DNA of 64,000 nt from Oligoflexales bacterium (GCA_045106415.1 JBGCEP010000026.1:32001-96000), one strand, 5' to 3'. Positions 1,178 to 63,447 are shown, counted from the stretch's first letter. Made by a program: numbers and translations. The notes: generated by a model not told the origin, from the letters alone.

Positions 1178-1862
1178 TGATGTCAAAGAAATGCGAGATC
1201 TATTAGTTCAAATTGTTGAAGCGTTGGGTTATGAGGCGCTTACAGCAGAGAGTGGGCAGTCTGTTTTAATGCAATTGGAAGCTGAAGAGACTGATGTTGA
1301 TCTAGTCCTTTTAGATATTGGGATGCCGGGTTTAAATGGTATTCAAGTTACAAAAAAAATTAAAGAAAACTACCCTGATATTAAAATATGTTTTGTTTCA
1401 GGTAGTAAAGATAAGACAATGGTTGCAAGTGCTATCCAAGCAGGAGGCCATGATTATGTTGTTAAACCTGTCGACATTGTCATTCTTCGCCAGAAGATAG
1501 AAAAATTACTAGGCCGTAGCCAGGAAGATCAATTTTTAAGTGTTGAAGCGTATTTAAAAGCTGCTTTACCAAAATTTCCAATGGATATACCTCTTGTTGT
1601 TATCGAAATATCAGAAGTGGGCTTTAAGCTTCAAAGCCCACTTCCATTTCAGAAAGAAGGTCGTTTAGAAATAGCGATTCCTAAAATACAAAACAAGTTA
1701 GCAGAAGAACAACTTTTACCGTGTCAGGTGGATGAAGTTCATCAAGAAAAAGAAAGTGGGCTTTATATTCATGTTTGTTCTTTCTATGGAATACACGAAG
1801 CTGTGCGAACAGTGATTCGGTCTATGACGTTGCAAGGTAAAAAAATATTAGATGATGATTGA
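1155..1862 (+). CDS. Response regulator with C-terminal PilZ-like domain
   Basis: ILIADD, LLDIGMPGLNG and YVVKP receiver motifs. The C-terminal IEISEVG resembles the PilZ D/NxSxxG motif. Confidence 0.8.
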   Translation: MGHILIADDVKEMRDLLVQIVEALGYEALTAESGQSVLMQLEAEETDVDLVLLDIGMPGLNGIQVTKKIKENYPDIKICFVSGSKDKTMVASAIQAGGHDYVVKPVDIVILRQKIEKLLGRSQEDQFLSVEAYLKAALPKFPMDIPLVVIEISEVGFKLQSPLPFQKEGRLEIAIPKIQNKLAEEQLLPCQVDEVHQEKESGLYIHVCSFYGIHEAVRTVIRSMTLQGKKILDDD

Positions 1863-1906
1863 AATTCATCATTTTTTACTTCATGTAAAAAATTTTTATA
1901 TAAATA

Positions 1907-1939
1907 AAAAAGCAAGACTGTTTTTACAGCCTTGCTTTT
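1907..1939 (+). terminator. Rho-independent terminator
   Basis: AAAAGCAAGACTGT-TTTT-ACAGCCTTGCTTTT imperfect hairpin downstream of the 1862 stop. Confidence 0.65.
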
Positions 1940-2388
1940 AAAATTTAGGTCTGATGGCCATAGAGTGATCTTTATAGAGATTTCTAACTAGTTTGATAAT
2001 CTTAGGTAATTTGATTGTGTTTATCACTGTTTATAGATTTTTTAATACTAGATCGAATTTTTATTTTTCCCTGACGATTAAAGGATCAGGTGAATCAATT
2101 CTACAGAATTTATGACATTTTTCTCTTAAATCTGTATGAATGATTTTAAGGGCATTAAAATTTTTACCATCAAGAGTATGTGACCTAAGAGTCTGTCTAG
2201 AGAATAGTTCTGTGTATGATAGTTCGAGCTCTATGAACATTATTTCTTCTGAGAATAAAGATGTGGTTGAAATTACGTGGGTTTTGGATGCTGTGGAAGA
2301 AGAGTAATTTTCAAAATTATATTTTTGTAATATTTAACATATGTTTTAAACTGTGCTCGTCATATGAAAATGATAAATTGTTAGCATG

Positions 2389-3615
2389 TGAGCACCCTTA
2401 ATTTTTCGGACTCCTTTTCAACATAGTTTCCGGCGCGGGAAATAGCCCTAAGAGGTGAGTCATAATGTAATCAGACCAACGGAAAAAGAGCATAATATTT
2501 CTCTAAAAATTTAAGAAAGATGCGATCCATCTTGTCATTGAGACGGAGGCAGGCAATCAAAAAAATAGATGAAAATATTTGCGTTGGAAATAAGTTTTTT
2601 AGGACATAGTGGGTAAAAGCTGAAAGCAAGCGCAAACAAACATAGCTACGTACAATGTAGCCATGTTTCTCAAAGAGCTTGAAGCAGAGGTCTAGCTGCT
2701 TAAATTAGATCGAGAAATCTTAAAAAAATATGGCGTACATCATTCTCGTCTAAGAATGACGTGTATTTTCATATTTGATTACTGTCAAAATGGATAAATA
2801 CAGTTGTATGTAAAACTCTAAAGGCTTCAAAAAGAGTTTGTTATCATTGATAAATTTTGGTTTTAATCAAGGTGAACTGAACCGAACTAAAATAGAATGA
2901 TTGATAAGGTTTTTGAAAATTTTCGTTTTTATAAATAAATACGAGCTATGAGCATATGCATCATGAAAGAAAAAAATGAAAGGGTTATGAGAGAAAATAA
3001 TCTTCGGACAAAGAAAAGGCGACGATTTGTCAAAACAACTGACCCCCCTCATAAAATACCTCTATGATCCAATCTTGTGCAAAAAAATCGACCAAGGAGC
3101 TCCAAAAAATTTTCTTGTCTGGGATCACAGATATTCCAACGAAGTCTGACTGGATATACTTAGCTTTTATTATGGATGCTCATGCTAGAAAAATCGCTGG
3201 CTGGGACCTCAAAAAGCATATGAAGAAAAGTCTAATGATAGGAGCCTTTAGGCTAGTTCTGTGTGGTTTTTAACATAAACCACATGAGGTTGCTCGTCAT
3301 TCTGGCTGTTGTTATCAATACGCATAAGCTCTGTTTATCGTAGAATTTAAAAAAACATGAGCTGAAATAGAGTATGAATGGAGAAGGTGATTGTTGAAGT
3401 AACGTCTCAGTGGAAAGTTATTAAAATAGCGCATGTCTCATAGAAAATTTGAGAATCTAGCCAGAACACAATTATCAATATTTGAATGGATTGAAATTTT
3501 CTATAGAAGACAGCGTCTTCACTTATTTTTAGGGTATAAAATTCAGCTTTATTGAACTTAATATAGATGGAAAAAATTGCTTAAATGGAGTGTCAGAAAA
3601 AAGAGTGAAAAATCA
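2389..3615 (+). mobile_element. Degenerate IS3-family insertion sequence (transposase pseudogene)
   Basis: orfA remnant ELEAEV*LLKLDREILKK with an A-run at the usual frameshift site (~2720). orfB integrase-core fragment ITDIPTKSDWIYLAFIMDAHARKIAGW (3064-3273). TG...CA ends with imperfect IRs, ~1.2 kb, many stops. Confidence 0.8.
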
Positions 3616-3702
3616 CTACCTTCGTTGAAGCAAAAATTTTATTGTAAATCTACGCAGGTAGAATTAAGTAAATTCACCGCAGCGGTGGCGTCTAAGGTCA
3701 TA

Positions 3703-3740
3703 CAAAAAACCCCTTGTAACTCATAGTTTTACAAGGGGTT
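3703..3740 (-). terminator. Rho-independent terminator of the 7246-3765 operon
   Basis: AACCCCTTGTAA-N9-TTACAAGGGGTT perfect stem followed by a T-tract on the minus strand. Confidence 0.8.
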
Positions 3741-3764
3741 CCTCCTTAGGTGGATGTAGAGCTT

Positions 3765-5213
3765 TTATCCAGCAGCGGGAGCAGCTTCTTCTACACCCTC
3801 ATCAACAAAGACATACTCAGAGTCGTTTGCGTTAAATTCAGCATTTGATATTGGGGAATCAGGGTAAAATTTAGCGATATCGATTTTCCCTTCATGAAAC
3901 TTTTGAAAGTTTGCAACAAGAACTGATGCGCAAGCTTCAGGGCTTGTGCTTACTTTGTTTGCTGCGTTATCGACAGAGCCACCTCCATCAGACTTAAAAG
4001 CTCCAATTTGGTTTCTTGCAAATTTAGGGCGGCCTGCTGGATCTGCGCAAAACGCCATAGCAGCACTACGTTGACCTGAGTCAGCTCGGAAAGCTAGTTT
4101 ATTTACTGTACCGTCAGACTCTGCGTTATTTCCTGCTGCAACACCACCGTCAGTTGTGATTGTCACCATAATTTTTCTGTTTTCGAGAAGAGCCAATCTT
4201 AATGCCCGACCGACTGCTTCACCAACTTCGACGTTTTTTGCGTGGGTTGATGTCACGCCTCGATTGTGATAATCACCACCGCCAATTTCAAACGCTGCAG
4301 CTCCAGCCGTTCCTGAAACAACAGACCAAGCAAGAGCAGCATCTTGACTCGTAGCGTCGGTAAACGCTGTTGCAACATTAGCGCTTGGTTGAACGCTAGA
4401 AGCATCTGCAGAAAAGAGTGCTTGTGAATCAACGTGACCACACCGAATTAATTCTTCAAGTTGTTTATCAGGTGCTAGCATTAAAAACTTTTTCAGCTGT
4501 GTTTCACTGAGATTTTGAATCGCCTTTAAAAGTTTATCGCGCCCAGCAGCTCCAAATCGAGTTGTTAAAGGTCCTGGTGTAACAAGTCCTGTTAAGTCAT
4601 TAGCGGAGCTGACAATAACTGGAGCAGCGCCAAGTTGAAAAGGAGAATTATGGCGTCCACCTGAAGCTTTATTTCTTGCACCAGTAAGAGATGTGTATCG
4701 ACCTTGAGAAACCATTGCCATACCTGGAGCAACACCTAATAAGTTATTGCCGCTGTCATCGTCGGATACAGTGCAAACAATAGCTGAGTTGACCTTAGCC
4801 ATGAGCAGAGGGTCGTTACCCATCCCTGCTTTTAAACCTTGTAAAAGAGGGCTGTTGACGTGCATCTCTAGACCAAAAGTACTGTCAATAAACGCCGCGT
4901 TTGAAGGGTGCAGTTCATCTGGAAGACCTAATGCAGAATAACTTGTGAGGAGCTCTCCTGCAGTTGTGCGAACAACGACATCATTACCTGCTAGGTTAAT
5001 TCCACCAGAGGCATCAATAGCGTATGCTGCTGCACCAGCAAGGTTTGCTCCTCCTTCAGATGCACAAGCTCCGTAGAGTTGTTCTGTTCTTAAAAGAGCA
5101 TATAAACTTGGTAAAGCTGCAGCTCCAACACCTGTTATAAAACCGTGTGATAAAAAATCTCGTCTTGTTTTGAGAATGTGACCATTATATTTTACTTTTT
5201 TAAATCGAGACAT
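3765..5213 (-). CDS. Twin-arginine (Tat) exported protein, divergent DUF1501/DUF1552-like
   Basis: TRRDFL plus hydrophobic stretch. IDASGG and GGGDYH parallel DUF1501 xxGG and GGxDTH. Start 5213 follows an AAGGAG RBS. Confidence 0.7.
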   Translation of the reverse strand: MSRFKKVKYNGHILKTRRDFLSHGFITGVGAAALPSLYALLRTEQLYGACASEGGANLAGAAAYAIDASGGINLAGNDVVVRTTAGELLTSYSALGLPDELHPSNAAFIDSTFGLEMHVNSPLLQGLKAGMGNDPLLMAKVNSAIVCTVSDDDSGNNLLGVAPGMAMVSQGRYTSLTGARNKASGGRHNSPFQLGAAPVIVSSANDLTGLVTPGPLTTRFGAAGRDKLLKAIQNLSETQLKKFLMLAPDKQLEELIRCGHVDSQALFSADASSVQPSANVATAFTDATSQDAALAWSVVSGTAGAAAFEIGGGDYHNRGVTSTHAKNVEVGEAVGRALRLALLENRKIMVTITTDGGVAAGNNAESDGTVNKLAFRADSGQRSAAMAFCADPAGRPKFARNQIGAFKSDGGGSVDNAANKVSTSPEACASVLVANFQKFHEGKIDIAKFYPDSPISNAEFNANDSEYVFVDEGVEEAAPAAG

Positions 5214-5238
5214 AAACTCTCCTTTCTGCTGTTGGTTC

Positions 5239-6000
5239 TTATTGTTCAAACAGTACGTCAGTTGAAGACATCACCTGAACCAGAAGAGCAATACTGATGT
5301 CTGTGGTTGAAATGTTATCCGCAAGTAAACCTGTAACAAGTTCGTTCATTGCTTTTTCTTGTTCTGCTTGGTCGATAACTGTTCCTCGGCCAACTTCACT
5401 AAGGATGCTTTTGAAGATTGTTGATCTTCCGGCTGTACTATAGACAGTAGCTGCTGCCCCGGTGAGATCTGTTGTTCCGAAAAAACGAGCACGGATTGTT
5501 GCGTCAGCAACAATTTGTTCTGCAAGTGAGTGTGCGAGTTTAATGACAGCTTGCTGAACTGTTCCACCAAACTCAGCTGGGCTAAAACCTCTTGGGAGCA
5601 GAGAATTTACACTTGCAAGAACAGCTGCTGTTGGCGCAGGCCATGTTGTAAATCCAGAAACACTTAAAAGAGTGCTTTCAATGCCCCGGAAGTTGCGAAG
5701 CATCATACCTGAGGGTATGTCTTCTACAGCAGCTCCTAAGTCGGCATCTGGGTCAAACGGACCGCTGGGAATGTCAGCTGTATCTTCGCCTCCATCACCG
5801 TTTCCATTTTTTCCGTTTGATTTAGAGCTGTTAGATCCTTTGGTTTTTGAGTCGTATTCTAAATCACTACCTTGGCCAATAGAACCAGATTTTTGTGCGG
5901 CTGTACCTGCTCCACTTCCCGATCTATGGTCAGCGGAGTCACAACCCCAAAAACCAAGAGAGGCAAGTAGAATGATATGGAACCCTTTTTTCATTAACAT
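5239..6000 (-). CDS. Lipoprotein with G/S/N-rich linker and helical C-terminal domain
   Basis: Signal peptide ending GFWGC and a low-complexity linker. The C-terminus resembles that of the 58599 lipoprotein. Confidence 0.75.
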   Translation of the reverse strand: MLMKKGFHIILLASLGFWGCDSADHRSGSGAGTAAQKSGSIGQGSDLEYDSKTKGSNSSKSNGKNGNGDGGEDTADIPSGPFDPDADLGAAVEDIPSGMMLRNFRGIESTLLSVSGFTTWPAPTAAVLASVNSLLPRGFSPAEFGGTVQQAVIKLAHSLAEQIVADATIRARFFGTTDLTGAAATVYSTAGRSTIFKSILSEVGRGTVIDQAEQEKAMNELVTGLLADNISTTDISIALLVQVMSSTDVLFEQ

Positions 6001-6019
6001 AATTATTCCTCTCTTTAAT

Positions 6020-7246
6020 TTATTTAATACATTTCACAGCGGCGTCGATGAATAACTGTTTGAAGTTTTTGTGTTTATCTCGGAAATCTTGCCCCATTTG
6101 ATGGATTGCAAGTTCAATTTGCTTTTTTGCTTTAGGGTTGGCTGCCGTTTGTGGTGTTACATTACAAACATGTTTTACAGCATAGAATGCAAATGCATCT
6201 GAAAAAGCATTTGTTCTAGCGAGCATTTCACCCCATGCGCTAAGGCCTTGTCCAGCTATTTGGCCGTTAACAATATTTCCTCTCCAGCCAATGATTTCAT
6301 TTTTTCCTGTAACCCATTTATTGATCCATTTATCGTCAACAACTCGACGAGCGTCAGGGAATACAGAAACGTTGCGGTTCATCTTAGGCTGAACAACACC
6401 AGGAGTGTATTCAAGGAAACCGTCTTCAGGTGTCTCACTTTGGCCAGGTTTAAAGTCATAATAGGCAGCGAAGTCACCCATAGCATCCATACCTGAGTGG
6501 CAGCCAGAACATTTTGAGATGAAAAGATTAGAGTCACCACCAGGAGCGCGATCAACATCAGCGCGGATACTGCTGTCTTCAACTGTATTGTCATGAAATG
6601 ACTCAAGCTCTTTTTCTAAGAAGTAACGGTATGCAAATTTAATAACAGCTCTGTTTGTACCGTCAAAAAAGAATGTTTGTGCAAAGCCTCGTGTACTCAA
6701 AACCCCAGAGACACCACCCGCTGGCATACCTGTTACAGTAGATTGTTTCCCCTTGATAAGGTCAGTTTTTAAATTGAAACCCGTCCCGCCTCCTAATGGA
6801 TCTAGTTGCTGTGTCATTTCTTCATAGTGAGTATTGTTTGTTGTGGCATATGGAGTTTGTATGTCTGAACCTGTATAAATAATGTCATCTGACAGTATTT
6901 TAAAGAAATCGCAGGTTGAGTCGTTAACACAACCAATGAGAGTAACGATCGTGTCGTTGAGGGGGCCGTCAACACTTGCTTCTTCATTTGTAAATGGACG
7001 GAATAAGTTGACAAGCCTTACGGATAGGAAGGCTGTATGGTCAACAGCGATTTTTGCGGCTTCCTCAGGTTTGTTTGCTTCAATGTGAGCTTCCATTTGA
7101 TCAATGATAGCCGTTGAAGGCGCTGCAACGCCGGTAATCCTCGAAAACATACGTTTTGCCGTATCTCTAGGGGCCGCGTGAGCCTCCAAACACAACAGAC
7201 CTGTGGCGGCAATACTCACAAGTAAGCTCGACTTCCATCGCATCAT
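6020..7246 (-). CDS. Secreted monoheme c protein, DUF1549/DUF1588/DUF1585-like
   Basis: Sec signal ending AHA; AKRMFSRITGVAAPS; GVLSTRGF...GTNRA; CSGCH heme motif. Confidence 0.75.
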   Translation of the reverse strand: MMRWKSSLLVSIAATGLLCLEAHAAPRDTAKRMFSRITGVAAPSTAIIDQMEAHIEANKPEEAAKIAVDHTAFLSVRLVNLFRPFTNEEASVDGPLNDTIVTLIGCVNDSTCDFFKILSDDIIYTGSDIQTPYATTNNTHYEEMTQQLDPLGGGTGFNLKTDLIKGKQSTVTGMPAGGVSGVLSTRGFAQTFFFDGTNRAVIKFAYRYFLEKELESFHDNTVEDSSIRADVDRAPGGDSNLFISKCSGCHSGMDAMGDFAAYYDFKPGQSETPEDGFLEYTPGVVQPKMNRNVSVFPDARRVVDDKWINKWVTGKNEIIGWRGNIVNGQIAGQGLSAWGEMLARTNAFSDAFAFYAVKHVCNVTPQTAANPKAKKQIELAIHQMGQDFRDKHKNFKQLFIDAAVKCIK

Positions 7247-7308
7247 TCATTTCTCCTTGTAGGACGAATCAGACGATCTAACACACACACCGTGCTTAGA
7301 CATAAACT

Positions 7309-7335
7309 CTTTCGGCTTTTGGCTATCTATTTTTA
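7309..7335 (-). promoter_or_regulatory. Sigma-28 (FliA)-like promoter of the 7246-3765 operon
   Basis: TAAA-N15-GCCGAAAG, a near-consensus match. Confidence 0.6.
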
Positions 7336-7518
7336 AGGTTAAATAAAGATTATTTATTAAACGCTATGATATCAGTGTGTTCTCTTGATCTCGCGAGGAG
7401 CTAGAAACCAACTTTTATCTGAGGACACCGATATAGATTTACTATCTAGTCGCGTTAATAAAAATCCATGTCTCAAAAGTCGATGTGTGCTATAAGGAGT
7501 TGTGTTATTGGAGTGTTT

Positions 7519-57004: not shown

Positions 57005-57138
57005 ATAAAAGCCTGTTTTAGATCATTTAAGTAAAGGTATAAAGCTGGCCTTATATTGATTCATCGGTTTTTTTTTGAAAATGTGAAGTATTATGAATAT
57101 TAAATTATTTTTAATTATCAGCGGTTATCATATTTTCT

Positions 57139-57165
57139 TTAGAAAAAAATCAAAAATGACGATAA
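57139..57165 (+). promoter_or_regulatory. Sigma-28-like promoter motif
   Basis: TTAG-N15-GACGATAA. A divergent TTCA-N15-ACCGATGA lies at 57061-57087 on the minus strand. Confidence 0.4.
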
Positions 57166-57197
57166 AGGACGCAGTTATGATCCCTAGGAGTAATAGC

Positions 57198-58436
57198 GTG
57201 AAAATATTTGATAGCAACAATAAAATGACGATGGCTTTTAGTTTTTTATTATTTATCTCCATGGGTTGTGGTAAGACCTCGACACGATCGTCATCCTCAG
57301 GGTCGAGTGATGCTACAATATCTGACATTAGTATGACACTTCCAAGGCGAGCATTACTTGCAAATGAAGTTCCTGCTATTAAAAGACTCATGACACATTA
57401 TCGATTGAGGTATGAAACAGTTGTTCCGTGTGCTTCAAGAGGATTTATTGAGGTAGCAGCGTACCGAGATGAAGGGCTTCTCGGTATTAATGTTGATCGT
57501 AGCTGTGAAATTCTTTTAAGTATGGAGTATGGATATAATCTTAAAAGCGATGGAAGTGGAGATGTTTATTATGCTTCGAATAGAATGCGTTTCTCACCAG
57601 AAGATTTAGGTGGAATTCCATTAAATCTTGTTGATAATGATGATTTTCTGCAGTCTGAATCACAAAAAACTTCACAAAATGTTGCTTCACAGGGTTCTGT
57701 AAATTCAAACAGCGTCTCACCCCAAGTTCAAGAGAATAATAGTTCTCAAAATATAAATAACTCAAGTAATCAGAACAATAGCTCCCAAGATGTGAGTCAT
57801 TCGTCAGTGCCGCAGGACTCTTCTCGAACAACTAGCGCACAGCAGTCAAGCTCGGTTGGAGAAGAAACAAAGAAGAAGCGTTATTTCCGAATAGATTTTG
57901 ATATGCGTATTACGACATTAGGAAAACAACTTGGTTTAAAAACTGAGACTTTTCGCAATTCTGAAGAAGTTGCTACGGGCAGTTCTTCAAAGGACAGTCG
58001 TGACTCATCTACAGGTCTTCCTAGTTCTGACATTGATCGAGATTTAAATCCAGCCTCAGGTATTCAATCGCGTGATGATGTGGATGACAGTTTGATTGAT
58101 GATGGAAGAAGTAATGATGATGATCTTATTTCTGAGCCTTTTGAGGGTTTAGATGATGATGAGCTTCCTTCTGAAGAAGGTGGTGATGAAAATCAAGTGC
58201 AAAAAGAAGTGACTTATAACGATGATATTCAACTGCTTTTGAGTGATAACTGCACTTCTTGTCATAGCCCAGGCGGAGTCGCTGCAAGTATTGACTTATC
58301 AACTGAAGATTCTGCTAAAAATTTTGCAAGTCAGTCTAATAGCTCTATTCAAAATGAGAGAATGCCTCCATCAACCCCATTAGCATCTGAGGATAAAGAA
58401 CTTTTTGATGCATGGATAGAAAGTGGTGCTCAATAA
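57198..58436 (+). CDS. Lipoprotein with S/N- and D-rich linkers and C-terminal monoheme cytochrome c
   Basis: ISMGC lipobox; VTYNDDIQLLLSDNCTSCH...MPP...WIESGA. Start uncertain (GTG 57198 after GGAG; ORF open from 57093). Confidence 0.8.
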   Translation: MKIFDSNNKMTMAFSFLLFISMGCGKTSTRSSSSGSSDATISDISMTLPRRALLANEVPAIKRLMTHYRLRYETVVPCASRGFIEVAAYRDEGLLGINVDRSCEILLSMEYGYNLKSDGSGDVYYASNRMRFSPEDLGGIPLNLVDNDDFLQSESQKTSQNVASQGSVNSNSVSPQVQENNSSQNINNSSNQNNSSQDVSHSSVPQDSSRTTSAQQSSSVGEETKKKRYFRIDFDMRITTLGKQLGLKTETFRNSEEVATGSSSKDSRDSSTGLPSSDIDRDLNPASGIQSRDDVDDSLIDDGRSNDDDLISEPFEGLDDDELPSEEGGDENQVQKEVTYNDDIQLLLSDNCTSCHSPGGVAASIDLSTEDSAKNFASQSNSSIQNERMPPSTPLASEDKELFDAWIESGAQ

Positions 58437-58598: not shown

Positions 58599-59306
58599 AT
58601 GAAAAAACAAAAATTCTCCAATTTTTTATTCTTTCTAGCTATTATCTTTTTAGCTCAAGGTTGTTATTTCATTGAATTTTTCAATGGAGGTAGTGATTCT
58701 TCTTCAGGAGGAGATGAGCCTTCAGTTAGCCGTCAGCCTGTTTTAGGGGGGACGATTGGCCCTGTGGCTGGAAGTGTTGATGAAATCGCTTTGGCTGCCG
58801 TCTATGCTATCTACCCAGGAACTGCTCCTGCATCTATCCGCCCTGATCCAGATTTGTATGTTCGGAGATTTTTAAGGCAGTTTAGAGAAGAAAGCTCTAC
58901 TTTAGCTCGTGCAATTGGAAATGTAGAGGGCTTTCGTTTATTGTTAGGCGGGGCGAGTATTGACTTTCAAAAAATGCCTCAACAAACATACGATGCAACA
59001 TCATTACTTGCCAGCCTTAGTGTTGCCGGAGAGGTTTGTGAAGGGCTGGTTTCACCCAATAATTGGGAACACTCTGGTTGGGAAACTATTTTACCATTCG
59101 GTGCAAATGATACTCAAAACAATATTAAGTTTCTTATTCAAAGAATTACCGGTCAAAAATCTTCTGAAATCTTAGCTGAGGATGTTGATCAACTTCAACA
59201 AATTTTAGATGACCATAGAGAAAATTTAGACGACCCCGTGACATATGAAGATTATCAACCTGTATGTGCTGTACTATCTTTGGATGCGGAGGCGTTATTA
59301 TTATGA
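58599..59306 (+). CDS. Lipoprotein, helical partner of the heme/DUF1501 module
   Basis: LAQGC lipobox; ATSLLASLSVAGEVC...VCAVLSLDAEALLL. Confidence 0.8.
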   Translation: MKKQKFSNFLFFLAIIFLAQGCYFIEFFNGGSDSSSGGDEPSVSRQPVLGGTIGPVAGSVDEIALAAVYAIYPGTAPASIRPDPDLYVRRFLRQFREESSTLARAIGNVEGFRLLLGGASIDFQKMPQQTYDATSLLASLSVAGEVCEGLVSPNNWEHSGWETILPFGANDTQNNIKFLIQRITGQKSSEILAEDVDQLQQILDDHRENLDDPVTYEDYQPVCAVLSLDAEALLL

Positions 59307-60946
59307 AAGCTTTCTATCTATTTTTCATGTTTTTATCTTTTCAGGCTTACGCTGCAGAAGATATTTCTAAAGCTTTGAGGCGAGCGCAGTATCTTTTAAA
59401 TGCAACTGTCCCCACAGATCAAGAATATCAAAATCACGCTCAAGATGTTCAAAGTTATAGGAATGCTATAAGAGGATTTTTAGACCATAATAATTTTTAT
59501 GAAGCTGTTCTTCGCTATCATGAGCTGCAACTTGGCGTGGGTCTTCCTACAGATTATATTGACGAGCTTTTACGAAGTGATATTGATCATAAGACATCAA
59601 AATTTGCGACGATTGAATGTGGTGTCGAAGATAGTCGATTGGAATGCCAATGGGCAGGAAATACTTCAAATGAAACGTCAACATGTCCAGCATCTGCAGA
59701 GCAAGCTTCTTCAGTATTTTGGTATCCTGGGCTTGTTGCATGGGTATGTCCTTCGGTCATACGTGCATGTGGCTCCGACTTAAGTCGTTGCTTTATACGG
59801 TATCGAGATTCTGCTGCTGCACAACATAGTGAAATAGGAACAACAGAAGCTTTTGATTCTAGGTTTTCTGTTATCAAATCTTTAGGAAAGCAGTCTGCAG
59901 GACTTGCAACTGCAGTTGTTGTTGCAAACTACCCTTACACAAAAATTTTAGAGCCAGGATTATATGCTGTTGATGGTGCTATAGCTCATTTTTATAGGCA
60001 GTCTCATCATTTTGATTTAGCGAAATTAAACTTATCACCAAACTTAATTTCGCAAGTTGAGAAAATTTCATTAACAAATACGAGATATCGCTTGATTTAT
60101 GATGGAGGGCAATATGAACAAGCAGGTATTTTATCTTCTTTTGGTTGGCTGAGAAGGTATGAGAAAAATCGTACTCGTGCAAACCAGTTATATGAGCGAT
60201 TGCTATGTCGTCAATTCACAGCTGAACTTCCAAGGGTTTTTCCGCAAGATCCAGGAAATCTAAGAACAACCCCCGGATGTGAAGGGTGCCACTCTGTTTT
60301 GGATCCTTTGGCAGATTTTTTTACAACGTGGGGCGAGGGAGGCGACCTTTATTCTGGTGTTCATGAAGGTGTAGAAACATCTTTTGCTGGTAAAAGTGGG
60401 CGTTATTTGTCTGATCTTTCAAAAATTATTCGAGAAGATCCAGCTTTTGCGAGTTGTACCGTTGAGCATGTTTGGGAGTGGCTTATTGGGCGCAAATTCC
60501 ATGAAACAGAAGAAGATTTAAGAACATCGTTAACGAAGTATTTTATGGGCACGAATTATTCATTTAAAGAATTAGCATATGTTGTTGCAACTCACCCAGT
60601 CTTCCTTGAGGGATCCAGAGAAGACACTGATGTTATTGACCCTCTTGCACCCCAACCTTTAGGAGAACCACCTGGGAGTCGTGAGCTTGCTGTGTGTGAG
60701 GGGAGTGTTGATTTTGCGACACAGATAGCTGCTCCAGCAGCAGAGTATTGCCAAGGTTGTCATAATGGGCAAGGAACAACAATACCTTTAATAAGTGAGA
60801 ATGATTTTAGGACTTATGGAAAAGCGTCAGTGTTACAGGTTTCCGGTGGATTTATGCCTTTAAATTCATCAGGAGCTCCATTTAGTGGTCCTTTATTTGA
60901 TTTTAAAGAAAGCATTCGATGTTGGGTTGAGGAGCAGGGTTTATGA
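59303..60946 (+). CDS. Secreted diheme c protein, DUF1549/DUF1588/DUF1585-like
   Basis: Signal ending AYA; LRRAQYLLNATVPT; GILSSFGW; NRTRAN; CEGCH and CQGCH; FASC...WLIGR; ATGA overlap with the upstream gene. Confidence 0.8.
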   Translation: MKAFYLFFMFLSFQAYAAEDISKALRRAQYLLNATVPTDQEYQNHAQDVQSYRNAIRGFLDHNNFYEAVLRYHELQLGVGLPTDYIDELLRSDIDHKTSKFATIECGVEDSRLECQWAGNTSNETSTCPASAEQASSVFWYPGLVAWVCPSVIRACGSDLSRCFIRYRDSAAAQHSEIGTTEAFDSRFSVIKSLGKQSAGLATAVVVANYPYTKILEPGLYAVDGAIAHFYRQSHHFDLAKLNLSPNLISQVEKISLTNTRYRLIYDGGQYEQAGILSSFGWLRRYEKNRTRANQLYERLLCRQFTAELPRVFPQDPGNLRTTPGCEGCHSVLDPLADFFTTWGEGGDLYSGVHEGVETSFAGKSGRYLSDLSKIIREDPAFASCTVEHVWEWLIGRKFHETEEDLRTSLTKYFMGTNYSFKELAYVVATHPVFLEGSREDTDVIDPLAPQPLGEPPGSRELAVCEGSVDFATQIAAPAAEYCQGCHNGQGTTIPLISENDFRTYGKASVLQVSGGFMPLNSSGAPFSGPLFDFKESIRCWVEEQGL

Positions 60947-62280
60947 AACAAAAAAGAATGATAGCAATTCCTCCAGAAGATGTTGAGATGTTTGGTCGTA
61001 GGCAGCTTTTTCAGCAAGGAGCAGCATTAACCGGTTACTTAAGTTTAGGATCTTTGTTTGGAACATCTGGACAAGCGCAAAGCACAAACTATCAACTTGC
61101 TAGAAATCTTATTTGGATTCGTATGGCGGGAGGCTGGGATACTCTTGAAACTACAGACCCGAAAGCAAATTCAACTGCAGATATACAAACTATTTATGGC
61201 TGGGATCAAGCTCATCAACTCACAGGTGCGGATGCAGCAACAAAGGTAGGTAGATGGTTTCCGAAAATAGCGACTCACGGGGAAGATATTGTTTTGTTAA
61301 GAGGTATGGCTATGGGGACAAACTCTCATAATGCAGGAACGGTATATATGGATACAGGGGTGTTGAGTAATGCGGGTCGAGTTGCTTCTGCTTCTATTCC
61401 TGCAATTGTGGCTTCTGAGGGAGAAGCCACAATCCCTATGATTGTTTTAAATGGGGGGCAAACACCACAGACAGATAGAGGGTTATTAAATCCAGTCTCT
61501 GTTGTAAGAGCTAATAATTTATCTTTGTATAGGTCTATGTATCCAACTGAAAATGATGCTATTGAACGATCTGTCCGTATGCTTGATTATTTAAAAAACT
61601 CTTTGACGCGTGTGCAGGATGAAAGAGGAAGCCATGATCGTTTAAATGAAATTGTTGCATCAGAAGAAAAAGTGAGAAGACAGTTTTTGGATAACGTTGG
61701 CCTTCGACTTCAGGTTGAGGATGAAGATATTCAACCTTTTTTAACAGGAGCTCCGACAGGGTTTCGGCGAAGAGATGCTGAAAATTTTGCTCTAGCACTT
61801 AAGCTGTTACGTGGTGGGGTGTGTAATGTTATGAGTCTTGGTATTGGTGGTTTTGATACACATAGTAACCAAACAGCAAACCTACAGCCAATTCTTACAG
61901 GGACAGATCATGTTCTCGATGTTTTTTTGTCTGCTTTAAAATCTTCAGGTCTTTTGGATACAACTCTTGTTGTTCTTCATTCAGAATTTGCTCGAACTCC
62001 TAAAGTTAATAATTCAAATGGTCGTGATCATTGGTCTGTAGGTGGAGCGATGATGATAGGAGGAGGGATTCAAGGGGGAAGAGCGGTAGGGGCAACTGAT
62101 GATTCTTATCGAGCTATGGACATTGACTTGGAGACTGGGCTTCCTTTGATTGGTGGTGCGCAGTTAAATCCAACACATTTTGCTGGAAGCTTGCTTGAAC
62201 TGACTCTTGGGGCAAGCTATGCGGGTTTGAGAACCTACTTGGAATCTATACCTGCCTTGACTCGTTTGAAGACTGCTTGA
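60943..62280 (+). CDS. DUF1501 family Tat-exported protein
   Basis: GRRQLF signal; MAGGWDTLETTDPK, NSH, GGFDTH, SEFARTP, GRDHW and GGRAVGATD. Confidence 0.9.
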   Translation: MKQKRMIAIPPEDVEMFGRRQLFQQGAALTGYLSLGSLFGTSGQAQSTNYQLARNLIWIRMAGGWDTLETTDPKANSTADIQTIYGWDQAHQLTGADAATKVGRWFPKIATHGEDIVLLRGMAMGTNSHNAGTVYMDTGVLSNAGRVASASIPAIVASEGEATIPMIVLNGGQTPQTDRGLLNPVSVVRANNLSLYRSMYPTENDAIERSVRMLDYLKNSLTRVQDERGSHDRLNEIVASEEKVRRQFLDNVGLRLQVEDEDIQPFLTGAPTGFRRRDAENFALALKLLRGGVCNVMSLGIGGFDTHSNQTANLQPILTGTDHVLDVFLSALKSSGLLDTTLVVLHSEFARTPKVNNSNGRDHWSVGGAMMIGGGIQGGRAVGATDDSYRAMDIDLETGLPLIGGAQLNPTHFAGSLLELTLGASYAGLRTYLESIPALTRLKTA

Positions 62281-62340
62281 GAAAGATTGCGGTCCTTCTA
62301 TAGCTATGACACGATCAAAAGAATCTGTTCGTGTGAGGTT

Positions 62341-63447
62341 ATGATGAAATTTTTGTACTTTTTGATAGTGTCTACTCCTCTTTATAGTCAAGGTCTTCTT
62401 GAAACAAAAATATTTTCTTCGACAGAAAGTTTTCACGGTACTCCTTTTGCTTTAAATCCTGCTGTAGATCGCAGTGATGTATTACAAGGAGATGCTATTC
62501 TTTATCGTGAAACGTCGGAACATATTTGGACAGATAATGACAATGTTGAAAAAGCAGATGTATCAGGTGAAATTCAAGGTGTCGGCGTTGTTACGAATGT
62601 AGGTTCTGGTCTTATGATTGGTTTTTCGTATCAGAGGTTGACTTATACAGACACTCTGTCTCGCGATCAAAGAGGTGAAGTTTTCGAAAACTGGAAAAAA
62701 CAGCAATCTATGGCTCGTATTGCTGTTGAACTCACAGAACATCTTCATGCTGGTTTTTTGTTGAAATTCTTAGATGTTGAATATGATCTGCTTGGCTCTT
62801 TTTTTATAAACTCTTCTGAACGAGCTTTGTTAAAACCGTCTCTGTTTGGAAGCGGCGGAGGGCTTGTGATGACCTTTGATCGTATGGTTTTGTCCGGTGC
62901 TTGGGTTCCTACAATGAAAGGTAAAGCTAAGGTTCTAGGTGAAGAATTTATCGTTACAGAACCTGGTTTGTCAGAAATGACCTTATCTTCAAAACATCAA
63001 CAAATGATGGGAGGTATTGGAGTGCGTCGTTGGATTTACCGTAAAGATGATAGAGTGAATGGGACAACGGCAAATAATGAGAATCAAACTCAACTAAACC
63101 TGATGGGTTTAAATTCAGGTATGTCGAAAGTTTTTCCTATGTATAGTCGTTTTATAGATGTTGAAGCTTGGATGACGCCTGCTTTAAAAGCAGGCGTGCG
63201 GCTCGCATATACAGATTATGAAGTTCACACTGACTTACAGAGAACTTTTCCAGGTGAAGAAGCTGTGAGCCGGAAATTTTCAGCATTTCACCTGCAAGCT
63301 CACGCAACAATTAAAACAAAAGGCGCAGAACTTTCTTTAATGGCTTTGAGGGATTCTAGAAAATGGGAAGGTGAGAATAATAATCGCCCATTAAGCTATA
63401 AACAAAAAGAACAAAGCATAGTATTTCAAGTTCGAAGTCAAATTTAA
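62341..63447 (+). CDS. Putative outer-membrane beta-barrel protein
   Basis: Signal peptide, FadL-like LNPA near the N-terminus, repeated amphipathic beta strands. Confidence 0.6.
   Translation: MMKFLYFLIVSTPLYSQGLLETKIFSSTESFHGTPFALNPAVDRSDVLQGDAILYRETSEHIWTDNDNVEKADVSGEIQGVGVVTNVGSGLMIGFSYQRLTYTDTLSRDQRGEVFENWKKQQSMARIAVELTEHLHAGFLLKFLDVEYDLLGSFFINSSERALLKPSLFGSGGGLVMTFDRMVLSGAWVPTMKGKAKVLGEEFIVTEPGLSEMTLSSKHQQMMGGIGVRRWIYRKDDRVNGTTANNENQTQLNLMGLNSGMSKVFPMYSRFIDVEAWMTPALKAGVRLAYTDYEVHTDLQRTFPGEEAVSRKFSAFHLQAHATIKTKGAELSLMALRDSRKWEGENNNRPLSYKQKEQSIVFQVRSQI

Follow-up and report, generated by a model that had tools for sequence, protein, structure and literature searches.

An intact three-gene operon in an Oligoflexales bacterium for a heme protein, its predicted lipoprotein adaptor and a protein with a predicted alkaline-phosphatase fold

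Introduction

Gene pairs that combine a planctomycete cytochrome/PSD (PSCyt/PSD) protein with a DUF1501 or DUF1552 protein are among the largest systems of unknown function in PVC (Planctomycetes-Verrucomicrobia-Chlamydiae) bacteria, Bdellovibrionota and Myxococcota. In the classical PSCyt3 system a single protein carries the domains PSD3 (DUF1587), PSD5 (DUF1595), PSD4 (DUF1592), PSCyt3 (DUF1588) and PSD2 (DUF1585) in this order and has as partner a DUF1552 (HXXSHH) protein with a twin-arginine translocation (Tat) signal; one such pair is present on contig C11 of the genome studied here. We describe an operon at positions 3765-7246 (module A) of a 64-kb stretch of DNA from an Oligoflexales bacterium, the whole of which is referred to as the window, and compare it with the operon at 58599-62280 of the same window (module B). 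Module A is an intact operon of three genes, for a heme protein with an export signal (A_cyt), a small lipoprotein that probably acts as an adaptor (A_lipo) and a protein of alkaline-phosphatase fold (A_tat); the corresponding genes of module B are called B_cyt, B_lipo and B_tat, and the coordinates of all of them are given in Table 1.

Passages of He et al. 2017 (PMC5615132) describe PSCyt genes as adjoining two unknown gene families, with the function stated as unknown, and list fused carbohydrate-binding modules including Laminin_G_3. DUF1587 is also annotated in Cbp2D of Cellvibrio in a passage of a second paper (PMC8981238), which is a weak lead towards electron transfer in the oxidation of polysaccharides and does not count as evidence below. 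No functional study turned up when the full-text literature was searched for the DUF names.

Module A resembles the classical PSCyt3 system in having one CxxCH motif in the same aligned position, in the apparent collinearity of A_lipo plus A_cyt with the whole classical protein, and in that the heme gene adjoins a gene for a Tat-signal protein of about 400-500 amino acids (aa). It differs in that the putative PSD3-PSD5 part has a gene of its own, which comes after that for the heme protein, that no Pfam model is matched at cut-off, and that the partner is related to DUF1501 and not to DUF1552 (a single DUF1552 sequence compared with the A_tat profile gave E 0.011, over the Tat signal only). 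The module B family, found in Oligoflexia-type genomes, consists of the same three kinds of parts and likewise has a heme protein without PSD3-PSD5 and an adjoining lipoprotein. In contrast to module A, its genes follow the order lipo-cyt-tat, and B_cyt is enlarged by an insertion of about 150 aa and by a further cytochrome c domain at the C-terminus; the fourth gene is a different one and the Tat protein is a regular DUF1501 protein. Module A is an unnamed and mis-annotated variant of a known system whose function is unknown, and what is new here is the reading of its lipoprotein as a detached module together with a predicted interface. We assign the overall explanation developed below a probability of roughly 0.7.

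Heme protein and lipoprotein

Profiles for the module A proteins were built from 27 relatives in a protein collection (none with a Pfam domain) and from 80 genome loci, the latter kept for analysis from at least 480 loci that were found by scanning one genome per species. For module B, 131 genomes of the window's phylum were searched and 20 loci were fetched with their flanks. The classical family was represented by an alignment of 28 PSD3-PSD5-PSD4-PSCyt3-PSD2 proteins from the window's phylum.

The window's A_cyt matched no Pfam or NCBIfam model, including PF07627, PF07624 and PF07631 at their gathering scores, and all five relatives that were scanned gave sub-threshold matches to PSD2 (E 2.8e-4 to 1.4e-3) and/or PSCyt3 (E 0.002-0.014). 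When compared by profile-profile alignment (hhalign), A_cyt and the classical family were linked with a probability of 97.4% (E 9.6e-12), and the alignment set mature A_cyt (25-404) against positions 263-744 in the one-piece protein of contig C11, with CSGCH placed on CAACH. The CxxCH motif (C246, C249, H250) is invariant in 70/70 sequences. Judged from these alignments, A_cyt is remotely related to the classical PSCyt3 proteins over their PSD4-PSCyt3-PSD2 (DUF1592/DUF1588/DUF1585) part. The AlphaFold2 (AF2) model of A_cyt had a predicted local distance difference test (pLDDT) score of 92.7; Foldseek found no match to it in the PDB at E <= 0.001, and the best VIA-align match of the whole protein (Z 5.0) covered the C-terminal helical hairpin only. 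As the search covered A_cyt as a whole, no new fold is claimed.

The region of the classical protein that A_cyt does not cover appears to be encoded by the neighbouring gene. Pfam places PSD3 at 105-167, PSD5 at 190-249, PSD4 at 262-385, PSCyt3 at 541-638 and PSD2 at 670-724 of the C11 one-piece protein (757 aa), and A_lipo 96-251 aligned to its residues 100-246 in hhalign. A_lipo and A_cyt therefore tile the classical protein, and the only breakpoint falls between PSD5 and PSD4. A profile of the short A_lipo lipoproteins matched the classical alignment at E 2e-4 when the whole alignment was used and at E 6e-5 (65%) for its N-terminal part. The first-pass annotation had proposed the small lipoprotein as a third core subunit. 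As a conserved part of the core this holds, in that the middle gene encodes the A_lipo domain (about 165 aa) at 76/80 related loci and that the domain docks on A_cyt in the prediction described below. It probably does not hold as a new kind of subunit: since the two proteins tile the classical one with one breakpoint, the "third subunit" is best read as a detached N-terminal module, and A_lipo is probably the PSD3-PSD5 (DUF1587-DUF1595) module encoded on its own.

Two independent structure-based results agree with this split-gene reading. A structure search of the ESM Atlas with A_lipo 90-253 returned its own family first and then PSD3/PSD4/PSCyt clusters at template modelling (TM) scores of 0.66-0.67 over 138-147 residues, with PSD3 as the aligned part in two rows and DUF1800 at TM 0.61, these scores being without statistics, flagged as "under the bar" and to be taken as leads only. 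For a complex of A_cyt (25-408) and A_lipo (90-253), the interaction prediction score from aligned errors (ipSAE) was 0.87 (three runs, 0.85-0.89) as against 0.00 for the best of three controls, which is a model confidence and not a measurement. The 0.87 mark is reached by 116/157 solved complexes and by 2/215 mismatched pairs, a calibration that is only rough in this case because custom alignments were used. The runs shared at least 84% of their contacts with a partner pLDDT of at least 89, and, as no solved structure resembles A_cyt, it is unlikely that the prediction reproduces a known complex. The predicted interface joins the N-terminal motif of A_cyt that was noted already in the first-pass annotation (28-48) and its C-terminal helices with the PSD3-like start of the A_lipo domain (92-119); the surfaces involved are residues 28-48, 72-80 and 357-383 on A_cyt and 92-119 and 204-208 on A_lipo. 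Binding of A_lipo to A_cyt is thus predicted by the model.

In loci outside Bdellovibrionota the A_lipo domain forms the C-terminus of proteins of 720-1011 aa. Laminin_G_3 was found in all four of these long middle proteins that were scanned, and weak cytochrome c matches were seen in three of them as well. The commonest weak Pfam matches in the A_lipo family, DnaI_N (8/70 members) and PilO (5/70), look like chance. The lipobox consensus at the end of a signal peptide is [LVI][ASTVI][GAS]C. The A_lipo leader ends in ...LGFWGC, where FWGC is non-canonical; the consensus is F-N-x-C in the A_lipo family and L-S-G-C in the B_lipo family.

Tat-signal protein

A_tat carries the twin-arginine motif KTRRDFLSHG before a hydrophobic stretch, with R17 and R18 invariant in 63/63 family sequences, and is predicted to be exported. 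No Pfam match was obtained for A_tat or for any of its relatives (0/27); it does not reach the gathering score of PF07394 (27 bits), and a PF07394 scan of the whole genome found only B_tat and the C27 protein. The absence of EFxRTP and DHW from the protein encoded at 3765-5249, which had been noted earlier, is right and is common to the whole A_tat family.

The fold was assigned from models. The AF2 model of A_tat (pLDDT 80.7) contains a helical insertion at about residues 204-299, and all 50 matches listed by VIA-align were enzymes of the alkaline phosphatase superfamily (Z 11.0 to 7.7, residues 57-473). The best of them was 7mw8_D with Z 11.0, a root-mean-square deviation of 4.0 and 213 aligned residues, and sequence identity to structures of this superfamily was 5-13%. 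With Foldseek, no PDB entry matched A_tat at E <= 0.001, and the weak rows were almost all from the alkaline phosphatase superfamily. In the ESM Atlas, 27/30 feature matches were clusters carrying DUF1501, and the structure match to a DUF1501 cluster had TM 0.52/0.55 over 338 residues. According to these models, A_tat has an alkaline-phosphatase-superfamily fold. It shares the core fold with nucleotide pyrophosphatases/phosphodiesterases (NPPs), PafA, cofactor-independent phosphoglycerate mutase, MCR-1/EptA and sulfatases, and differs from them in its helical insertion. D67, D314, H316 and D355 are invariant in 63/63 A_tat-family sequences and may be metal-site residues.

A_tat is a distant relative of DUF1501 (PF07394). 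A profile of the A_tat family (81 sequences) aligned by hhalign with a broad DUF1501 profile of 29 proteins (8 B_tat orthologues and 21 paralogues) with a probability of 95.5%, E 1.5e-8 and 344 Viterbi-aligned columns. The Tat signal, a similar length, an alkaline-phosphatase-like core and the GG.D.H motif (GGGDYH versus GGFDTH) are shared. In comparison with the motifs GG.DTH, SEFGRT and G.DHW, taken from the DUF1501 profile consensus, A_tat has TDGG in place of SEFGRT, another segment in place of GRDHW, and GGaN in place of the N-terminal GGWD with an invariant Asp three residues earlier. The Pfam model is moreover blind to A_tat and its 27 relatives, and the Atlas structural match reaches only TM 0.52.

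The A_tat family has no model of its own and has acquired a wrong name. The ESM Atlas auto-names it "general secretion pathway protein GspF", and RefSeq uses the GspF label for A_tat homologues in Marinobacter and Peristeroidobacter (L075, L049 and others; P0033, P0039, P0042, P0065). GspF is a polytopic inner-membrane protein; A_tat is a soluble alpha/beta protein with predicted Tat export, and the two share a database name only. A role for A_tat as GspF in the type II secretion system (T2SS) was rejected, since neither A_tat nor its 27 relatives have a T2SSF Pfam domain and the fold is alkaline-phosphatase-like. In the absence of a T2SS F domain from the family, the RefSeq name is an annotation error that has now spread, and correct annotation of this widespread branch is now possible.

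Relation to module B

Pairwise BLASTP between modules A and B was weak, with E 0.003 for the heme proteins (CSGCH/CEGCH), E 0.043 for the Tat proteins (GGGDYH/GGFDTH) and E 0.29 for the lipoproteins, and family alignments were therefore built. The six family profiles were compared all-against-all by hhalign, giving 3 cognate and 12 non-cognate pairs. All 12 non-cognate pairs had E >= 0.035. A_cyt and B_cyt aligned with a probability of 96.1% (E 3.3e-9), and the A_cyt profile recovered B_cyt from all 10,973 open reading frames (ORFs) of the genome at E 6.7e-6. B_cyt itself is related to the classical family (hhalign 99.5%, E 1.1e-22), its PSCyt3 Pfam match being below cut-off like that to PSD2. 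For the Tat proteins the shallow profile of B_tat gave E 1e-4 and spanned only the Tat signal and the first strand, and it was the broad DUF1501 profile described above that extended the match. A_lipo and B_lipo aligned with a probability of 69.7% (E 4.2e-5, 217 columns), which became 81.2% (E 1.2e-5) with 120 B_lipo relatives, and E 1.9e-4 to 4.4e-4 with the C-terminal domain alone. Two Cys positions of B_lipo are also kept almost without exception in the A_lipo family. A deeper search with B_lipo offered no bridge to other families, as the 120 listed of its 240 relatives were 44-55% identical.

The profile alignments also bore out the motif-for-motif correspondence with the 58599-62280 operon that the first-pass annotation had reported, since every listed motif pair fell into the same columns. 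This applies to RMFSRITGVAAPS/RRAQYLLNATVPT, GVLSTRGF/GILSSFGW, TNRA/KNRT and CSGCH.../CEGCH... in the heme proteins, to VQQAVIKLAHSLAEQIV/SLLASLSVAGEVCEGLV in the lipoproteins and to GGGDYH/GGFDTH in the Tat proteins. At the level of sequence profiles, the proteins of the two modules are confirmed as pairwise remote homologues (the profile check suggested earlier thus came out positive for all three pairs), and the lipoprotein pair is the least secure of the three homologies.

Distribution and gene order

The module A family, for which neither Pfam nor NCBIfam has a model, has at least 480 loci, which are spread over Bdellovibrionota, Gammaproteobacteria, Myxococcota and Spirochaetes. Among the 131 genomes of the phylum, module A was present in 42, orthologues of B_tat (module B) in 60 and both in 28. 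The gene order was cyt-middle-tat at 70/80 module A loci, and nine of the ten misses have too little upstream sequence. The order lipo-cyt-tat was found at 19/20 module B loci. Orthologues of the module A proteins in other phyla are 27-41% identical. The earlier description of module A as a second copy with a different gene order is therefore right as regards the order, each order being fixed in its own family, and wrong as regards a copy made in this genome. Own gene order, own distribution and orthologues in other phyla indicate that the two modules branched long ago within one system. A recent intragenomic duplication was considered and rejected, the identity to other phyla being 27-41% and yet the likeness to module B being visible only by profiles.

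One true exception to the order of module A was seen at locus L072, from a metagenome-assembled genome titled Bdellovibrionota, where an A_tat homologue has a full 6-kb upstream flank without a heme or adaptor gene ahead of it.

Diversification of the system was also evident within the genome. At least five modules of the superfamily are present in its 2.95 Mb, namely A, B and those on contigs C11, C14 and C27, in line with the diversified family expected in the first-pass annotation, which had called for a genome-wide count. Copy numbers vary hugely across the phylum (up to 11 per genome for DUF1501 and up to 26 for PSD4), and the window's genome is at the low end.

Both modules have been undercounted by the term "tripartite". 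A homologue of the 386-aa protein encoded after B_tat was found directly downstream of B_tat in 18/20 module B loci, and module B is therefore at least a four-gene unit. In the module A family, 24 loci with a short middle gene (476 aa in L012), mostly titled Bdellovibrionota or Bacteriovoracaceae, have a CxxCH lipoprotein of about 290-690 aa following the Tat gene. None of the five such lipoproteins scanned matched Pfam; the protein shares homology with the long LamG middle proteins found elsewhere, over their N-terminal part (E 1e-10 to 1e-33), and is here called the cytochrome c-LamG component. The window's module A does not have this gene, the terminator following directly after A_tat.

Three further observations concern such additional parts. 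An unlinked homologue of the cytochrome c-LamG protein lies at C51:50357-51907 (+) (E 7.8e-34), near the contig end and with no module genes beside it. Some Bacteriovoracaceae loci (L002:3633-5150, L005:3677-5170 and L007:3702-5180) encode an A_cyt homologue of 492-505 aa, which exceeds the usual length by about 100 aa. The cytochrome c-LamG lipoprotein matches these long sequences as well (E 5e-16 to 5.5e-14), and they may represent another fusion of module parts. Upstream of module B, at 57093-58436 (+), there is a 447-aa putative lipoprotein with a C-terminal Cytochrome_CBB3-like domain (E 0.016) that resembles the extra C-terminal domain of B_cyt (E 2.8e-7 with the B_cyt profile); in 4/20 loci it matches only the B_cyt genes, and a separate homologue was not found in those loci.

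Alternative explanations

Besides the limits given above with the Atlas and complex scores, several results weigh against the explanation proposed here. No protein of module A matches a Pfam or NCBIfam model at cut-off, and all family assignments are therefore remote. For A_lipo, the hhalign probability of the short profile to PSD3/PSD5 was just 47-65%, and the 77-sequence profile of the domain reached only 1-14% (E 0.035 when the classical alignment was taken whole, E 0.002 for the N-terminal part of it). B_lipo matched classical PSD3/PSD5 at E 0.01-0.04, where the controls of this comparison gave E 0.04-0.5. With HMMER, 0/70 members of the A_lipo family matched Pfam PSD3 (PF07626) or PSD5 (PF07637) even at E <= 10, and the A_lipo and B_lipo profiles gave no cross-match in either direction. 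A_tat, the proposed partner of the other two proteins, has neither of the DUF1501 motifs SEFGRT and DHW. Finally, a consensus scan of the minus strand found no promoter upstream of 7246, the same scan having overlooked the real terminator described below. The HMMER results in particular could mean that A_lipo and B_lipo are unrelated lineage-specific helical proteins whose alignments to each other and to PSD3-PSD5 are coincidences of composition or secondary structure, which would also fit hhalign probabilities of only 33-81% and a full-length score that is perhaps inflated by the signal peptide and linker. We regard this as distinctly unlikely, because every non-cognate pair of these runs scored worse than the cognate one by a factor of 80 or more and both C-termini end in register with the motif "KLA.EyC..LV ... 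C.A.L.SA" and both family-level Cys in common. Moreover, an independent structure search also led to the PSD3 region, and both modules place the lipoprotein beside a PSD4-PSCyt3-PSD2-type gene that lacks exactly that region.

Homology of the three pairs, the position of both modules inside one 64-kb window and the conservation of the lipoprotein in both families would also be expected if module A were a diverged paralogous copy of module B from this lineage, with the lipoprotein as a new third core subunit peculiar to these modules. This is hardly credible given orthologues in Gammaproteobacteria, Myxococcota and Spirochaetes at 27-41% identity when the link to module B is seen at profile level (BLASTP E 0.003-0.29), the fixed order and broad distribution of each module, and an adaptor domain matching a region that is already part of the classical one-piece proteins. 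A more serious question is whether the window's copy still works. It is the most divergent family member sampled for all three proteins, with 42/109 highly conserved columns changed in A_tat (others: median 2.5, maximum 21), 25/105 in A_cyt (others: median 4, maximum 20) and 6/20 in A_lipo (others: median 1). Two nearly invariant Cys pairs are gone, A_cyt having E211 and A351 and A_lipo having A160 and L240 in place of Cys, and only 2/15 genomes of the same taxonomic family have even weak matches to module A. Together with the missing cytochrome c-LamG gene of the 24 related loci and AT-rich flanks that have few or no long ORFs and an integrase-core fragment, this could be taken to show that module A is a horizontally acquired remnant, decaying under relaxed selection and no longer functional as a system. 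The three frames are however intact and without stops, the CxxCH, the twin-arginine motif and all family-invariant columns are kept, as are a ribosome-binding site and a strong terminator, and both the single models and the complex are confident (pLDDT 92.7 and 80.7, complex score 0.87). A cytochrome c-LamG homologue is also encoded elsewhere in the genome, on contig C51, and since both members of each Cys pair were lost together the loss looks coordinated and not random. We therefore find decay unlikely, though less so than unrelated lipoproteins, and consider that the divergence quite probably went along with a retained or altered function.

Proposed architecture and function

According to the explanation preferred here, module A would encode a cell-envelope complex belonging to the superfamily of "planctomycete cytochrome/PSD protein + DUF1501 or DUF1552" gene pairs. 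Of the classical one-piece proteins, A_cyt would represent the PSD4-PSCyt3-PSD2 body and A_lipo the PSD3-PSD5 module, here encoded separately. The prediction has A_lipo docking on helices at both ends of A_cyt, and it is probably A_lipo that anchors the complex in a membrane. A_tat, presumably exported in folded form via Tat, would be a distant sister of DUF1501 with other conserved polar residues. Module A would be an orthologue of a widespread unnamed cluster, and A and B two old branches of one modular system whose pieces (PSD3-5 adaptor, heme body, phosphatase-fold enzyme and cytochrome c-LamG) appear to have been split, fused and reordered across lineages. A_tat may be the catalytic, metal-dependent partner, with the heme protein binding substrate or passing electrons, and the substrate may be a glycan or other polymer, as hinted by the LamG modules to which the adaptor domain is fused in other lineages. 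The present analysis does not reveal the chemistry; the evidence supports the architecture alone. Homology, fold, conservation of the cluster and tiling are results of the analysis, whereas physical assembly and attachment to a membrane are inferred from them.

A wider idea can be put forward only tentatively, namely that the PSCyt/PSD + DUF1501/DUF1552 pairs form a four-piece kit that has been repeatedly cut and re-joined, with the GspF-misnamed family as a so far unrecognised third major phosphatase-fold branch having its own active-site constellation and the window's copy being re-tooled and not decayed. If this were true, the joint acceleration of the three proteins, the coordinated loss of two disulfide pairs and the release from the cytochrome c-LamG component would point to a new substrate or partner.

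These proteins have resisted study, and the natural split of the heme protein marks a domain boundary that, together with the predicted interface, is useful in designing expression constructs. For knock-outs, culturable carriers of the module exist in Marinobacter, Brumicola pallidula DSM 14239 and Peristeroidobacter soli.

Locus features and flanking sequence

The three module A ORFs are all on the minus strand with close spacing, at the positions given in the first-pass annotation. The protein collection contains A_tat in the shorter of its two possible forms, starting from the ATG at 5213. The terminator stem (3740-3708) is perfect, with a free energy of -21.3 kcal/mol and z -5.0, and none of 200 shuffled sequences was equally stable; the consensus scan overlooked it because its loop limit was 8. 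Of the promoter and terminator that had been ascribed to the operon, the terminator is thus well supported; the promoter was not recovered by the consensus scan and is presumed to lie within 7247-7467.

Table 1. Position and description of the genes, signals and modules discussed in the text. Positions without a contig name refer to the window.
Feature	Position	Strand	Description
A_cyt	6020-7246	-	408 aa, CxxCH; Sec-exported (predicted) single-heme protein, signal peptide ...EAHA/AP
A_lipo	5239-6000	-	253 aa putative lipoprotein; Cys20 after hydrophobic leader, low-complexity linker, C-terminal domain of about 165 aa
A_tat	3765-5249	-	494 aa from TTG at 5249, 482 aa from ATG at 5213; Tat signal TRRDFLSHG
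Intrinsic terminator	3701-3740	-	12-bp stem, 9-nt loop, U-run; begins 25 nt past the A_tat stop codon
Upstream intergenic region	7247-7467	-	AAGGAG ribosome-binding site (7258-7253), 6 nt from the A_cyt ATG
B_lipo	58599-59306	+	Small lipoprotein; 240 relatives, all hypothetical proteins
B_cyt	59303-60946	+	PSCyt3/PSD2-like heme protein, extra C-terminal CxxCH domain; PSD2 E 2.8e-4, below cut-off
B_tat	60943-62280	+	Bona fide DUF1501 protein with Tat signal; PF07394 E 1.2e-43, 150 bits
Fourth module B gene	62287-63447	+	386 aa, no Pfam or family match
C11 module	C11:3185-5458 and 5463-6941		Classical protein and DUF1552 protein
C14 module	C14:88996-92048		Classical protein and 408-aa Tat-signal protein without any family match
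C27 module	C27:123189-126426		PSD4-PSCyt3-like lipoprotein, weak DUF1501, 141-aa cytochrome c

The GC content of module A is 41-46% as compared with 31-35% in the immediate flanks. This fits acquisition, yet it is inside the window's own range and is therefore not decisive. No ORF of 70 aa or more was found in the AT-rich region 1862-3765. Just downstream of module A, within this region, a 69-aa ORF (3064-3273, +) encodes an integrase-core (rve) transposase fragment (Pfam E 1.8e-5), the match being below cut-off because the ORF is truncated.

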